From Chloroflexota bacterium (GTDB taxonomy: Bacteria; Chloroflexota; UBA6077; FW602-bin22; JBCLEL01): a stretch of 35,397 nucleotides of DNA. A program made the position numbers and the translations under genes. The notes beneath the pieces were generated by a model that was given only the letters and a program-made list of their open reading frames with translations, was not told the DNA's origin and did no database searches. This document shows, in pieces, positions 6,801-11,772 of the stretch; positions within the stretch are counted from its first letter, which is position 1, and each line of letters opens with the position of its first letter. Where the stretch lies: contig JBCLEL010000001.1 in the NCBI GenBank assembly GCA_038913435.1, forward strand, positions 1-35,397, read 5' to 3'.

Positions 6801-7676
6801 TTGCTCGATCCTCGGCTCACCCCGAACCAGACCAGGACGGAAGAGGACGCTTACCTGATTCAGCCGATCACTGCTGAGCTGATTGATCGGTTGCGGTTGC
6901 CGCTATTCGGCCGGGTGAGCGCGCAGAGGTTGCGCTCGCACCTGAACGTTTGCCCTGACCTCGCGCTGGTCGTCAAAGGCACAAGCAACATAGGCGTGGC
7001 CAGGCCGTGGCGTCACCGGGACGACGTGTACGAGTTAGTGGACCTGACCGTTTGCGCTCACTCGCGTCAGTTGCTAGACGGGCTGACCGGACGGATTGCC
7101 GAGCGCGGGGCTTCGCTGATGGTGCTTGACTTCGACCTTTACTCCACCACCCAGGGGCTGTTCCACCAGGCGGGCTTCACCTTACTAGACGAGATCATCG
7201 AGATGTCAGCGCCCCTTCCACGGCCAGAGCAGGTCGAGCCGACGCTGGCCGCTAGCTACCGTGAGGCCGGCGATATTTCCGAGCTGTTGGAGATGGATCA
7301 CCTGACCTTTCCCTGGCTCTGGCGCAACTCTGAGCGCGAGATGAGCTACTATCTCAGCCAGCCGGCGGTAAACGTATTCATCGCTCGTCTGGACGGCCAG
7401 CCAGCCGGCTACGTCGGATACACCTTGAATAATCATTCGGGGTACATAGACCGGATCGCGGTACTGCCGCAACATCAAGGAAAGGGTCTCGGCTCGGATA
7501 TGATGGCCTGGACATTGCAACGACTCGAAGGAGTTGGCGTCACTGACGTCCAGTTGACAACCCAGCGTGACAACGAGCCTTCGCAGCGGATGTACCGGCG
7601 TTTCGGCTTTCGTGAGACTGGCTGGGGCTACGCGATCTACGGTAAGCGTCTCGTTGAGACGGAGGCCGGCGGTTGA
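6801..7676 (+). CDS. GNAT-family N-acetyltransferase (two-lobed)
   Basis: The C-terminal half (VFIARLDGQPAGYVGYTL...YIDRIAVLPQHQGKGLGSDMMAWTL...NEPSQRMYRRFGFRETG) carries the acetyl-CoA-binding Q/R-x-x-G-x-G/A motif. TTG start. Confidence 0.85.
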   Translation: MLDPRLTPNQTRTEEDAYLIQPITAELIDRLRLPLFGRVSAQRLRSHLNVCPDLALVVKGTSNIGVARPWRHRDDVYELVDLTVCAHSRQLLDGLTGRIAERGASLMVLDFDLYSTTQGLFHQAGFTLLDEIIEMSAPLPRPEQVEPTLAASYREAGDISELLEMDHLTFPWLWRNSEREMSYYLSQPAVNVFIARLDGQPAGYVGYTLNNHSGYIDRIAVLPQHQGKGLGSDMMAWTLQRLEGVGVTDVQLTTQRDNEPSQRMYRRFGFRETGWGYAIYGKRLVETEAGG

Positions 7677-8881
7677 GGGTACTGATGCTGTCCTGGGAGT
7701 ATCCACCGCATCTCATCGGCGGGCTTGGCAAGCACGTGGCCGAGATTGCGCCGAGGATTGCAGCAGCCGGCGTCGAGCTAAACCTGGTAACGCCACGCTT
7801 GGCCGGCGGGGCGCCGGAGGAGACGGCAGAGCGTAAGGGCGCCGCGGTCCGAGTGCACCGGGTGGACGCCACCTGGAGCGAGGCCGGCGACTTCTATGAC
7901 GGCGTAGCGGCGGTGAACCTCCAACTGTCGCGCTTCATAGAAGAAGATCTCTTGCCGAAACGGGGTTTTGACCTAGTCCATGTCCACGACTGGCTGGTCA
8001 GCTTTGCCGCAATCGAAGCCAAGCGCCTGACCAACACCCCGCTGGTTGCGACGATTCACGCAACCGAGTATGGCCGCAATCACGGCAATATCGGTTCGCC
8101 GCTGCAACGCAAGATCCACGAAGCTGAATGGCTGTTGAGCTACCAGAGTTGGAAGATCGTCTGTTGCAGCCATTTTATGAAGGATGAGGTCCAGCGGGCG
8201 TTCTACTGCCCGCCGGACAAGGTCGTGGTGATACCAAATGGCGTTGACCCGACCAAGTTCCGCCGGCTGCGCGATGAAGCCCTGGCGGAATTCCGCGCCG
8301 GCTTCGCCTTGCCCTACGAGCAACTGATCGTCACGGTGGGACGAGTCGTTTATGAGAAGGGCGTGCAAGTGTTGGTCCAGGCGATGCCGGAGATACTAGC
8401 CAAGTGGCCAAATGCAAAGGCGGTTGTGACCGGCGCCGGCTATTATCTCGACGATCTGAAGTCGCTGTCGGACCAGCTCAAGCTTGGTCCGAAGATGCTT
8501 TTTACCGGCTTTTTGCCGGAACACATACGCGACCGGCTCTTAGCCGTAGCTGACGTGGTCGCGCTGCCCAGCCTCTACGAGCCGTTTGGGATCGCAGCTC
8601 TGGAGGCGATGGCAGCCGGCGCGCCACTTGTTGTCTCCGATGTTGGCGGGTTTGGCGAGATCGTGCGGCATTTGGATAATGGCATCACCATATATCCTAA
8701 CTCGCCTTCATCATTGGCCTGGGGCATATTGGAAACGCTGGCCCATCCTGATGAAGCCAGGCGAAGGGCCGCTGTCGCGCTGGCGGAGATAGACACCATA
8801 TACAACTGGCGCTCAATCGCCCGGCGGACGGTTGGGTTGTACCAAGAGGTTGGCAAGGCCGGGGACAAGGTTGACGGGTGA
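7673..8881 (+). CDS. Glycosyltransferase family 4 (GT-B fold)
   Basis: The N-terminus MRVLMLSWEYPPHLIGGLGKHV and the E-x7-E motif EPFGIAALEAMAAGAPLV are typical of GT4. The start overlaps the GNAT stop (TTGA). Confidence 0.88.
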   Translation: MRVLMLSWEYPPHLIGGLGKHVAEIAPRIAAAGVELNLVTPRLAGGAPEETAERKGAAVRVHRVDATWSEAGDFYDGVAAVNLQLSRFIEEDLLPKRGFDLVHVHDWLVSFAAIEAKRLTNTPLVATIHATEYGRNHGNIGSPLQRKIHEAEWLLSYQSWKIVCCSHFMKDEVQRAFYCPPDKVVVIPNGVDPTKFRRLRDEALAEFRAGFALPYEQLIVTVGRVVYEKGVQVLVQAMPEILAKWPNAKAVVTGAGYYLDDLKSLSDQLKLGPKMLFTGFLPEHIRDRLLAVADVVALPSLYEPFGIAALEAMAAGAPLVVSDVGGFGEIVRHLDNGITIYPNSPSSLAWGILETLAHPDEARRRAAVALAEIDTIYNWRSIARRTVGLYQEVGKAGDKVDG

Positions 8882-8899
8882 GTAAGGCAGGTTGCGGTT

Positions 8900-9484
8900 G
8901 TGATTAGTGGGGGCTTCCGAGAGGAAGTATTGAACGTAGTCCTGGCTCAGCTTCTAAACGAGCGCGGGATAGTCTCAGTACCAGAACAAATGATGAGTTT
9001 ACCTCTACACGGCAGACGAATGCCAGACGTGCTTGTTGTGTTTCAAGGTCTTAGGACAGTCATTGAAGGCAAAGTGGACGATCACCCGGAAGCGGGAAAA
9101 CAAGCACTCGGAGACGCATCGAGTCGTGTAGAGGAAGGCATTGCCCACATCGGTATAGCCGTTCTCTATCCGGAGGCTTTACGCCACGTTCCATCTTTAG
9201 ACAGCCTACGGCAGCACCTCTCCTCAACTACGCTTCGGATTAATATTTGCAGCGAAGCCGGACAACACGGTTGGAACGAATGCTCAGTAGATGATATTGG
9301 TGACCTCTTGCGCCGTACGTTCGAGCAACTCGTTGAGGAGGATGTCGTTGTTCGGGCAGTCGCCGCTTTGGAGGCCGGCGTTGCGCGCTTCGCTCAGGCC
9401 ATATCGTGGGCTCCAGCGGTGGTCGAGCGCAGCGCAAAGGTGCTGGGTATCGGTGAACCAGATAAAAAAGAGGACCTAGAATGA
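8900..9484 (+). CDS. Small PD-(D/E)xK restriction-endonuclease-like protein
   Basis: 194 aa. EEVLNVVLAQLL...MPDVLVVFQGLRTVIEGKVDD (nt 9023-9073) fits E...PD-x13-E-x-K. The C-terminal ~100 aa looks helical. The stop overlaps the methyltransferase start (ATGA at 9481-9484). Lower GC than the flanks. Confidence 0.6.
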   Translation: MISGGFREEVLNVVLAQLLNERGIVSVPEQMMSLPLHGRRMPDVLVVFQGLRTVIEGKVDDHPEAGKQALGDASSRVEEGIAHIGIAVLYPEALRHVPSLDSLRQHLSSTTLRINICSEAGQHGWNECSVDDIGDLLRRTFEQLVEEDVVVRAVAALEAGVARFAQAISWAPAVVERSAKVLGIGEPDKKEDLE

Positions 9485-11772
9485 CTGCGACGCTCACCCC
9501 CGCCCAGCGTACGGCTGTAAGCAAAATAGCCGGTTTGACCATTGCAAACGCCATGGTATTCCAAGAAGTGCTGTCTGCTCACGAACAAAGAGTCTATCCG
9601 CTCCGCCAGATGCTCCAGGCAACTGACCCGATTACTGAGTTAAGCACCCATTGGCAGTTCATCTTAGATGAAATTGACTATGTTCCAATTTTCAGGGTAG
9701 CGCGAGACCTACTTTTGGAACTCCCAGCCAACCAGGACATCGAAGATGCTATCCGGTTCATGGGCGACCGGGCGCTCGACATCGTGCGTCTACGGGCAGC
9801 CCTTCGTCACGACCTTGTTGGACGGGTATATCACAAATTACTGGCCCATGCGAAGTTTCTGGGCACCTACTACACATCGGTCCCAGCCGCCACACTCCTC
9901 CTGAAAGTAGCGCTGTCATCACAGATTGAGGAGCGTAATTGGGCAGACATAGAGAATCTAGGCGCTTTACGCATCGCTGATCTAGCTTGCGGTACAGGCA
10001 CGCTGCTTATGGCTGCCGCCGAAGCTGTGACTGATAACTACGTGCGAGCGGTTAGCGCTCAAGACATTCGTCCTGATTTACGTGAACTACACCAGCTTTT
10101 GATAGAGAAGGTCATTCATGGTTATGACGTACTTCCTTCAGCTCTGCATCTTACCGCATCCACCCTGGCACTGCGCGCTTCAGACATGACGTTTCAACTG
10201 ACTAACCTCTTTAGCCTACCCTTAGGAGGTCCGGGCCATTGGCTGGGAAGTATTGAATTCTTGAAGGATCGTAAGATCCCCATCACTAGGGATATGTTTG
10301 GCGCCCCGACCATTGCAGGCCAAGTGACAGCTAAAGGCGACATCTCTTACCATATCGCGCCGTTACCTGACCTGGACCTCTGCGTGATGAATCCCCCCTT
10401 TACTCGTAGCGTTGGTGGGAATCTACTGTTCGGTTCTTTGCCTGAGTCCGAGCGCCGTCCAATGCAGAAAGAGTTGGCACGACTTCTTCGTACCAAACAG
10501 GTTCTCGCTAGTAGCACTGCTGGCTTGGGGTCAGTTTTCGTCGCCGTGGGTGACCGAGCGGTGAAGGAGGGAGGCCGGATGGCCCTTGTCCTCCCTAAGG
10601 CTCTTCTGTCCGGCGTAGCTTGGGGGAAAACACGTGAACTCTTTCGGCAGAGCTATCAGGTGGAGCACCTGATTGTCAGCCATGACCCCGCCAGGTGGAA
10701 CTTCTCCGAAAACACTGATCTTAGTGAAGTCTTGGTAGTAGCCCGGAAGGTGGGCGAGGAAGCTGCGCAGCACCATAGAGGTAGAGTTGTCTGCGTCAAC
10801 TTATGGCGCAATCCTGGTACAGCCTTCGAGGCTCTGAGTATGGCTCAGTCTTTGACGCGGGGCGAGCCGCCAGATGTCGAGCGAGGACAGGGGGCGCTCG
10901 ATGTAAGCGTCGGAGGGACTAAGGTCGGCGAAGCCCTGAGCGTGCCCTGGAGCGCTATCTGCGATGGTTTGTGGATGCCACCGTGCGCATTTGGCCAATC
11001 AGAGCTTGTGCGCGCAGCCCACCATCTGGTTCAAGGCCACCTTTACCTTCCTGGCGGTGGGATCGTGGGGACATTGCCCTTATGCCCTCTGCAGGATATT
11101 GGCAGTCTGGGCCCGGATAGGCGAGACATCCACGACGGATTCAGCCTTGCCACCGGCGAGACTGCATTCCCGGCCTTCTGGGGGCACGACGCCCCCTTAT
11201 GTACCACTCTGGCTCAGCGACCGAATCGCTACTTGTCGCCGCTCTCTCAGGCGAAACCAGGCCGCCATCTACGCCGCGTGCAAGACCTGTGGCCTAAGGC
11301 GGGGCGAATAGTCCTCGCTGAACGCCTGCGGCTGAACACGCAGCGGCTGGTCGCTGTTCGAATAGACCGGCCGGTTCTATCGAACGTTTGGTGGCCCTTT
11401 ACGCCAATGACAGCCGCTGAAGCTGCTGAGAAAGCTCTTGTTCTGTGGCTCAACTCTACGCTGGGATTGCTAGTTCTGCTGGCTCATAGAGAGGAGACGC
11501 AAGGGGCGTGGGTCGATTTCAAGAAGCCGGTTCTGGGGGCAATGCCTGTTCTTGATGTGCATGCCCTAAGCTCTGAACAGCTCGATACTCTAGCGCGCAC
11601 GTTTGACTCTCTCAGCGGTCAAGAGATATTGCCTTTCCCGTTCATGGCTGATGATGCGGTGCGTCAGGAGATAGATCAGACAGTAGCCAGGGTCTTCGGA
11701 TTGCCTGACTTCGCCGTGTTGCGTTGGCTCCTCTCGCGTGAGCCGGTCGTTTGCCTTCGCTCGTTGCCTTAG
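9481..11772 (+). CDS. N6-adenine DNA methyltransferase (gamma-class motif order) with long C-terminal TRD-like region
   Basis: 763 aa. It shows three methyltransferase elements. The pre-motif is RHDLVGRVYHKLL...FLGTYYTSVPAATLL. SAM motif I is LRIADLACGTGTLLMAAAE (aa 163-181, nt ~9967). Motif IV is VMNPPFTRS (NPPF at nt 10390-10401). Then comes GGRMALVLPKALL and ~330 further residues with no recognised motif, presumed to be the target-recognition domain. Confidence 0.85.
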   Translation: MTATLTPAQRTAVSKIAGLTIANAMVFQEVLSAHEQRVYPLRQMLQATDPITELSTHWQFILDEIDYVPIFRVARDLLLELPANQDIEDAIRFMGDRALDIVRLRAALRHDLVGRVYHKLLAHAKFLGTYYTSVPAATLLLKVALSSQIEERNWADIENLGALRIADLACGTGTLLMAAAEAVTDNYVRAVSAQDIRPDLRELHQLLIEKVIHGYDVLPSALHLTASTLALRASDMTFQLTNLFSLPLGGPGHWLGSIEFLKDRKIPITRDMFGAPTIAGQVTAKGDISYHIAPLPDLDLCVMNPPFTRSVGGNLLFGSLPESERRPMQKELARLLRTKQVLASSTAGLGSVFVAVGDRAVKEGGRMALVLPKALLSGVAWGKTRELFRQSYQVEHLIVSHDPARWNFSENTDLSEVLVVARKVGEEAAQHHRGRVVCVNLWRNPGTAFEALSMAQSLTRGEPPDVERGQGALDVSVGGTKVGEALSVPWSAICDGLWMPPCAFGQSELVRAAHHLVQGHLYLPGGGIVGTLPLCPLQDIGSLGPDRRDIHDGFSLATGETAFPAFWGHDAPLCTTLAQRPNRYLSPLSQAKPGRHLRRVQDLWPKAGRIVLAERLRLNTQRLVAVRIDRPVLSNVWWPFTPMTAAEAAEKALVLWLNSTLGLLVLLAHREETQGAWVDFKKPVLGAMPVLDVHALSSEQLDTLARTFDSLSGQEILPFPFMADDAVRQEIDQTVARVFGLPDFAVLRWLLSREPVVCLRSLP

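Follow-up and report, generated by a model that had tools for sequence, protein, structure and literature searches.

A putative two-subunit Type IIG-like restriction-modification pair from a Chloroflexota bacterium, and its split and fused relatives

Gene arrangement

Positions 1 to 35,397 of contig JBCLEL010000001.1 (GenBank assembly GCA_038913435.1), from a Chloroflexota bacterium, were analysed as one stretch of 35,397 nucleotides, referred to here as the window. It contains two overlapping genes on the same strand, which encode a protein of 194 residues with a PD-(D/E)xK nuclease motif and a protein of 763 residues with the motifs of an N6-adenine methyltransferase (Table 1). We argue below that they are probably two subunits of a Type IIG-like restriction-modification enzyme. 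A preliminary description of this DNA, made from the sequence alone, had identified both open reading frames (ORFs) and their overlapping stop and start codons; the coordinates were confirmed here, with a combined length of 194 + 763 = 957 residues. The small ORF is called as P0001 in the database, with a length of 184 residues. We favour the GTG at 8900 as its start, because R7, E9 and V10 are conserved among the homologues.

Table 1. Positions of the gene pair, its domains and motifs, two neighbouring genes and tandem relatives. Positions are those of the window unless a locus is named.
Feature	Position	Strand	Details
Small ORF, putative R subunit, 194 residues	8900..9484	+	GTG start; nuclease core about 8-128, connector helices 130-182, short charged low-confidence tail
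Putative catalytic core	8984..9073	+	E29 8984-8986; P42-D43 9023-9028; E56-G-K58 9065-9073
Junction	9468..9484	+	Shine-Dalgarno-like AAGAGGA 9468-9474, 5' of the large ORF; ATGA overlap 9481-9484 (ATG 9481-9483, TGA 9482-9484); NTGA overlap likewise in most split relatives
Large ORF, 763 residues	9481..11772	+	ATG start
Helical N-terminus of large protein	9481..9930	+	AlphaFold2 helices 7-123; contiguous with the small-protein helices in the fused P0195 and P0229
Predicted gamma-class N6-adenine methyltransferase domain	9931..10800	+	Residues ~151-440; motifs, weak family matches, fold
Motif I, D167-L176	9979-10008	+	
Motif IV, NPPF	10390-10401	+	
Predicted C-terminal recognition-type domain and terminal helices	10801..11772	+	Residues ~441-763; Foldseek, paralogue divergence
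GT4 glycosyltransferase gene	7673-8881		Also Pfam 'GT4-conflict' (E 6e-11), ranking below the general GT1/GT4 models
DUF2283 ORF, 67 residues	11791-11994		Pfam E 2.5e-14; 18 nt 3' of the methyltransferase gene; G+C 0.49
Tandem fused paralogues, ~950-970 residues, head to tail	L049 1975-7741; L059 1515-7305		Two Desulfobacterales genomes

The small protein

The small protein carries the nuclease motifs E9, E29, P42-D43 and E56-G-K58 in this order, all of them intact. In an alignment of 40 homologues the residues L15, L19, P28, E29, P42, D43, G50, T53, E56, G57, R76, G80, Y90 and E119 are invariant, and from these the motif is read as PD-x12-ExK. The PD-ExK core and helical tail noted in the preliminary description are therefore present, with a spacer of twelve residues in place of the thirteen given there. 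The AlphaFold2 model has a predicted local distance difference test (pLDDT) score of 87.9, and contains a helix at 8-21, strands at 44-48 and 51-59, a helix at 65-78, a strand at 84-90, further strands and then two long helices, 130-168 and 172-182. In the PDB, Foldseek ranks Hjc resolvases (probability 0.90 and 0.72), RecU, a splicing endonuclease, XisH and ThaI as the most similar structures. The protein is thus predicted to have a restriction-endonuclease-like fold, at Foldseek E-values that are weak. The model consists of the nuclease core and the connector helices, and lacks a recognition domain of its own.

Scans of the small protein against Pfam, NCBIfam and PADLOC gave no match, and a family-library scan of all 40 members of the alignment gave chance matches only. 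An N-terminal PD-(D/E)xK nuclease domain is one of the features that define Type IIG enzymes, and its counterpart here is the series E29, PD43, x12 and E56-G-K58, with the same reservation about the weak fold E-values.

The large protein

The large protein was modelled with a pLDDT of 81 and a predicted template-modelling score (pTM) of 0.79, and the model shows helices, a Rossmann-type methyltransferase and a mixed alpha/beta C-terminal domain, in that order. The sequences D167-LACGTGTLL and N304-PPF occur in gamma order and are invariant across 41 homologues, so that the earlier reading of a helical N-terminus followed by gamma-order methyltransferase motifs holds. Family matches are to Pfam N6_Mtase (E 2e-4, weak) and, in PADLOC, weakly to mad2 (E 2e-10), REase_MTase_IIG (E 1e-6) and MTase_I.

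Fold comparisons with Foldseek gave the following matches: the Clostridioides difficile orphan adenine methyltransferase CamA (E 9e-15, 679 columns), the Type IIG enzyme RM.BpuSI (E 3e-13, 851 columns), M.BseCI (E 2.2e-12, 700 columns), BREX BrxX/PglX (E 4e-12 to 1e-10, 790-960 columns), HsdM (2okc; E 1.5e-9, 496 columns) and BsaXI (E 3.5e-9, 468 columns). The alignments to CamA, BpuSI and M.BseCI reach through the C-terminal domain. These matches suggest that the C-terminal 330 residues, left unassigned in the preliminary description, fold as a recognition-type domain of the TaqI/CamA/BpuSI kind. The succession of a gamma methyltransferase and a C-terminal target recognition domain (TRD), which is also characteristic of Type IIG enzymes, is therefore represented by DLACGTGT (167-174), NPPF (304-307) and the fold matches.

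Split and fused relatives

Homologues were found by a word-indexed protein search. Those of the small protein form 241 clusters, nearly all 185-205 residues long and 50-66% identical to the query; those of the large protein number in the thousands, and the closest 120 are mostly about 761 residues long. Many small and large homologues lie on common contigs with adjacent locus tags. There are also close relatives that consist of a single chain, namely P0195 (944 residues) and P0229 (948 residues, encoded identically in two independent assemblies), whose N-terminus aligns to the small protein and the rest to the large one. Genomes of the same taxonomic family contain more distant relatives (32-42% identity) in open frames of 942-968 residues, and the three such relatives that we inspected (941-951 residues) have an N-terminal E...PD...ExK/E domain as in the small protein.

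The family is widespread. Species-representative genomes of many phyla contain at least 596 relatives, including those of the cultured Mesorhizobium cantuariense and Chromatium okenii. Among 401 genomes sampled evenly from the phylum, 26 contain the nuclease domain (45 matches, up to four copies per genome); all but two of these matches (43/45) lie in frames of 612-1617 residues, most of them 950-1000. At E <= 0.001 the nuclease domain forms 653 clusters (50% identity), and the best 150 of the 50%-identity representatives include 75 proteins of 171-260 residues and 30 of 900-1030. Aminobacter sp. MSH1 and Sulfuricystis multivorans carry fused copies on plasmids, and haloarchaeal viruses have remote relatives that carry a Type IIG annotation.

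We then classified the state of each gene by comparing hidden Markov models of both proteins with the ORFs of 80 retrieved loci and of further loci, keeping near-full-length methyltransferase matches after deduplication. Four loci with broken or truncated genes (L047, L064, L078 and L083) were left out. This gave 82 genes, 81 from other genomes and one from the window. The nuclease domain is a separate adjacent upstream ORF in 24 of these (23 besides the window) and the N-terminus of an ORF of 930-1080 residues in 57; the remaining gene begins at a contig end and has no upstream DNA. The preliminary description had raised the questions of whether the closest homologues are all fused and whether the methyltransferase is a widespread orphan. 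Neither is the case: both states occur, and the nuclease domain is adjacent or fused for 80 of the 81 genes outside the window. Endonuclease and methyltransferase are joined in one polypeptide, as in typical Type IIG enzymes, in 57 of the 81 members that have the nuclease domain, and are encoded by two ORFs in the window.

The pair is homologous to fused proteins of about 950 residues. Among the options in the preliminary description, a genuine two-subunit variant agrees well with these results, namely the homology of the small protein to the N-terminus of the 930-1080-residue relatives, and the split arrangement with intact residues at 23 further loci and in 241 clusters. Another option was an ordinary Type II pair, in which the small protein is an independent restriction endonuclease with its own recognition and the large one is the cognate methylase. 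The genes are indeed adjacent, overlapping and on the same strand, as in many Type II systems, but the small protein has no recognition domain of its own, being a minimal nuclease core with two helices, and the N-terminal domain of the fused relatives matches it colinearly. Moreover, the nuclease is found either together with methyltransferases of this family or alone, as a protein or fragment of about 200 residues; two longer representatives, P0241 and P0385, are exceptions. We therefore regard an ordinary pair as very improbable.

Three further proteins may be mentioned. P0241 (1376 residues, metagenomic) has the nuclease domain at 5-193, followed by unrelated repeat-like regions with sub-threshold NPCBM_assoc, PirA-like and ML-domain stretches instead of the methyltransferase, and could reflect either a chimeric gene call or another kind of fusion. 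P0385 (675 residues, metagenomic) combines a GT4 domain with the nuclease domain; its GT4 is not orthologous to the GT4 of the window. The source genome itself has a second, unrelated Type IIG-like methyltransferase frame (G000:C43:9378-10214, minus strand; 31% identity over residues 107-434), which lies in a 953-residue open frame with one interrupting TAG and may be a pseudogene.

Evolution of the split

A maximum-likelihood tree of 81 methyltransferase parts contains two deep clades that are entirely fused (13 and 28 rows) and a third clade of 40 rows, in which all 24 split members are found together with 16 fused ones. At least seven changes of state are needed on the tree, and at least five of these are forced by well-supported branches. 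The window groups with four other Chloroflexota members in a clade that is entirely split (support 97); of these five, four have the ATGA junction and one (L015) a TAG stop. The fused form is the commoner state and probably the older one.

The junctions differ between split members. They include 4-nt overlaps of the form ATGA, GTGA or TTGA. In L021 TTG follows directly on an in-frame TAG, and longer overlaps are seen in L024 (about 8 nt) and in an alphaproteobacterial group comprising L039, L040, L055 and L045 (about 17 nt). All of these junctions lie inside a non-conserved linker between the conserved 'LGI(G/R)E', at the end of the nuclease helices, and 'VSRI(A/S)GL', at the start of the methyltransferase helices, and at this point the split members have a short charged tail. 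The tree and the differing junctions together indicate that fission, re-fusion or both have occurred several times, so that the family has switched repeatedly between the split and fused states. Where the overlaps are out of frame, an indel of one nucleotide is enough to switch the state.

The ease of this change bears on a further explanation, already offered in the preliminary description as a recent frameshift: that the pair is a single gene broken recently, or an assembly indel at the junction. The assembly is fragmented (405 contigs, about 70% complete), and we found no public sequencing runs with which to check the junction over 9000-10000 or 9380-9600. However, all five members of the window clade are split, four of them at ATGA; the split arrangement is seen at 24 loci, and homologues of about 200 residues form 241 clusters; and the methyltransferase gene is equipped with a start codon and a Shine-Dalgarno site of its own. 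Nor do the split members differ from the fused ones in catalytic residues or relative conservation. A recent break is thus extremely improbable, and the split is a conserved and apparently stable state rather than a fresh frameshift.

Mean pairwise identities of the nuclease and methyltransferase parts are 0.407 and 0.522 in split members, and 0.359 and 0.458 in fused members, with a ratio of 0.78 in each case, and the pairwise distances of the two parts are correlated with r = 0.83 (split) and 0.93 (fused). On these comparisons there is no sign that constraint relaxes after the split. In L049 and L059 the tandem paralogues share 94-97% identity as far as residue 440 and only 76-81% in the C-terminal domain, a pattern that diversification of specificity would be expected to give.

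Genomic context

The base composition of the segment is foreign. The G+C content is 0.535 in the small ORF and 0.561 in the large ORF, compared to about 0.60 in the glycosyltransferase and trmD genes; at third codon positions (GC3) it is 0.50 and 0.58, compared to 0.67-0.74 in the flanking genes. The lower G+C content had been noted previously from positions 9661-9720, where 23 of 60 nucleotides are G or C, and it is borne out over both genes. The GT4 gene of the window has a GC3 of 0.72 and looks native.

The neighbouring genes encode a family-5 solute-binding protein, GNAT, GT4, DUF2283, TrmD, CinA and a sortase. In two relatives (G001 and G003) the GNAT gene directly adjoins trmD, which implies that the stretch from 7673 to about 12100, containing GT4, the pair and DUF2283, is extra in this genome. 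The GT4 gene, missing between GNAT and trmD in these relatives, does not recur at the other loci. Neither does DUF2283 recur beside the module, and it is therefore probably not part of the system. As the preliminary description had stated, the pair has neither a helicase gene nor a separate specificity gene nor a BREX/DISARM gene near it in the window. Clustering of ORFs over the 80 loci revealed no conserved accessory gene, only shadow ORFs within the module and paralogues of ABC transporters and histidine kinases. In the relative G003, a gene for a KAP-family P-loop NTPase (L006 3898-5220) lies directly 3' of the fused homologue.

The Aminobacter plasmid copy (L092, pUSP4) is a fused homologue of 947 residues, annotated as 'N-6 DNA methylase' and located between genes for a DUF5710 protein and a zincin-like metallopeptidase, which we take to be ArdC-like. 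We found no published methylome for Aminobacter sp. MSH1, a cultured carrier.

Proposed function

We consider it reasonably probable that the pair makes up a Type IIG-like restriction-modification enzyme in two subunits, the single-chain form being divided in the connector linker. The R subunit would consist of the nuclease and half of the connector, with the remaining connector half, the methyltransferase and the TRD making up the M.S subunit. The larger subunit would recognise a DNA sequence through its C-terminal domain and methylate adenine there, as an S-adenosylmethionine-dependent N6 methyltransferase of the gamma class, and this methylation would protect the host DNA. The small subunit, having no recognition part, would have its PD-ExK site placed to cut unmethylated DNA beside the recognition site or at a distance from it. 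The ATGA overlap, together with the Shine-Dalgarno site of the second gene, would couple the translation of both. Assembly of the subunits, DNA cleavage, sequence-specific methylation and a role in defence are inferred. The family behaves as restriction-modification systems do in populations: it is patchily distributed within the phylum, is present in many phyla and on plasmids, and has tandem paralogues that diverge mainly in the C-terminal domain, while the segment in the window has a low GC3 and is absent between GNAT and trmD in two related genomes.

Several observations weigh against this proposal. The Foldseek E-values of the small protein are 0.04 at best and range up to 0.3, no Pfam or NCBIfam model was found that covers the nuclease domain, and the methyltransferase family matches are weak overall. 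Nothing significant emerged when the PDB was searched by sequence, either with the single proteins or with profiles built from 40 and 41 homologues. To these must be added the lack of public reads over the junction and the points that follow, which also favour a different explanation.

This is that neither the split nor the fused form works as a classical restriction enzyme: the methylase could be protective or epigenetic, for example by aiding the establishment of mobile elements, and the PD-ExK domain could have a regulatory, DNA-binding or other nuclease role. We counted residue conservation over 81 nuclease domains and found that position 58 is K in 58 of 79 and E in 21 of 79 (26%), among split and fused members alike; the window copy has K. 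Conservation is fairly even along the full length, the C-terminal domain included: its mean pairwise identity is 0.33-0.48, compared to about 0.5 for the methyltransferase, and it is not hypervariable. The top fold match, CamA, is an orphan methylase. Both plasmid copies lie amid plasmid accessory genes (zincin-like metallopeptidase, DUF5710 and PRTRC genes), where a role in methylation only would fit too, and members of the family are biochemically uncharacterised.

Against this explanation, the other putative active-site residues are essentially invariant over the 81 members (E29 in 77/77, D43 in 79/79, and E56 in 76/79 with D in the remaining three; E9 is conserved in 74/76), and this argues for a working metal-dependent active site. 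Some PD-(D/E)xK nucleases, such as BamHI, tolerate a change of K to E at the ExK lysine. In addition, the overall architecture equals that of BpuSI-type enzymes, and there are several paralogues per genome, which differ mainly in the recognition domain. We therefore consider a function outside restriction rather unlikely.

If the pair is a restriction-modification enzyme, the nuclease could be a detachable module, with lineages toggling between one and two chains by small changes in the linker, either a 1-nt indel at an out-of-frame overlap or, for genes in the same frame, the loss of a stop codon. The two-chain form might be kept because it sets the ratio or timing of methylation and cleavage, for instance by allowing methylation before restriction following horizontal transfer. 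We put this forward as a tentative suggestion.

A defence role would in itself be ordinary. What matters more is that this is a widespread Type IIG-like family that nobody has studied, with at least 596 hits among species-representative genomes and a nuclease domain of 653 clusters that has no Pfam model. The fused and split forms in close relatives amount to a natural experiment, which could show how a nuclease lacking specificity is positioned or licensed by a methyltransferase/recognition subunit, and whether splitting shifts the balance between protection and restriction. A separable cutting subunit is also a possible engineering scaffold.

Comparison with known systems

A close parallel is RM.BpuSI (PDB 3S1S), a single-chain Type IIG enzyme (PMC3185434) with the same order of N-terminal PD-x(n)-ExK nuclease, helical connector, gamma methyltransferase and C-terminal TRD. 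In contrast to its one chain, the window pair has the nuclease and half of the connector as a protein of its own; identity is only about 12%, and there is no common Pfam family above threshold. MmeI and the Type IIL family (PMC2582602) are alike in overall architecture and total length (about 920-1000 residues), and are self-contained, with no separate methylase or accessory gene. The preliminary description had called the pair MmeI-like, which is apt for the order of domains but not for the sequence family: neither protein matches MmeI_N, MmeI_hel, MmeI_Mtase, MmeI_TRD or MmeI_C in Pfam at E <= 1, and the 50 Foldseek matches listed for the large model do not include MmeI. By sequence, then, the pair is not a member of the MmeI family. 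A distant relative (L006) has a sub-threshold MmeI_Mtase match of 21.7 bits, against a cut-off of 27.

CamA (7LNI) and M.BseCI (7QW5), the top fold matches for the methyltransferase and recognition domain, differ in having neither a nuclease partner nor a long N-terminal helical connector. The resemblance to BREX PglX and MADS Mad2 falls far below the cut-offs (NCBIfam MAD2 22 bits against 720; BREX-6 PglX 18 against 900), and no BREX or MADS accessory genes (BrxC, BrxL, PglZ; mad1-8) are found in the window or recur over the 80 loci. In Type III Res/Mod systems and in the heterodimeric Type IIS enzyme BtsI (PMC2909958), as proposed here, a catalytic subunit without its own specificity relies on a partner that recognises DNA. 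However, Type III Res has a superfamily-2 helicase motor, whereas the small protein has no ATPase domain, and Mod is of the beta class; in BtsI-type enzymes the large subunit is not a methyltransferase.

A split enzyme with a nuclease-less Type IIG-like methylase was proposed for HVO_A0006/HVO_A0237 of Haloferax volcanii, where the two genes are far apart on pHV4, flanked by transposases and read as a fragment of a disrupted gene (PMC4389544). The window genes, in contrast, are adjacent and overlapping, and the arrangement is conserved over many lineages. In a limited literature search we came across no earlier account of a conserved R + (M.S) pair of this kind with adjacent genes. If the nuclease is indeed a detachable subunit, the pair would be a natural example of an R + (M.S) organisation, for which, to our knowledge, no Type II case has been described. 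According to the proposal of Bower et al. (PMC6158711), Type IIG enzymes originated when a nuclease domain became fused to an M-half-S fusion. The window pair has exactly the unfused arrangement of this scheme, and in its family that arrangement interconverts with the fused one; on the same condition, the pair would be a living intermediate on the proposed evolutionary route between Type I and Type IIG enzymes.

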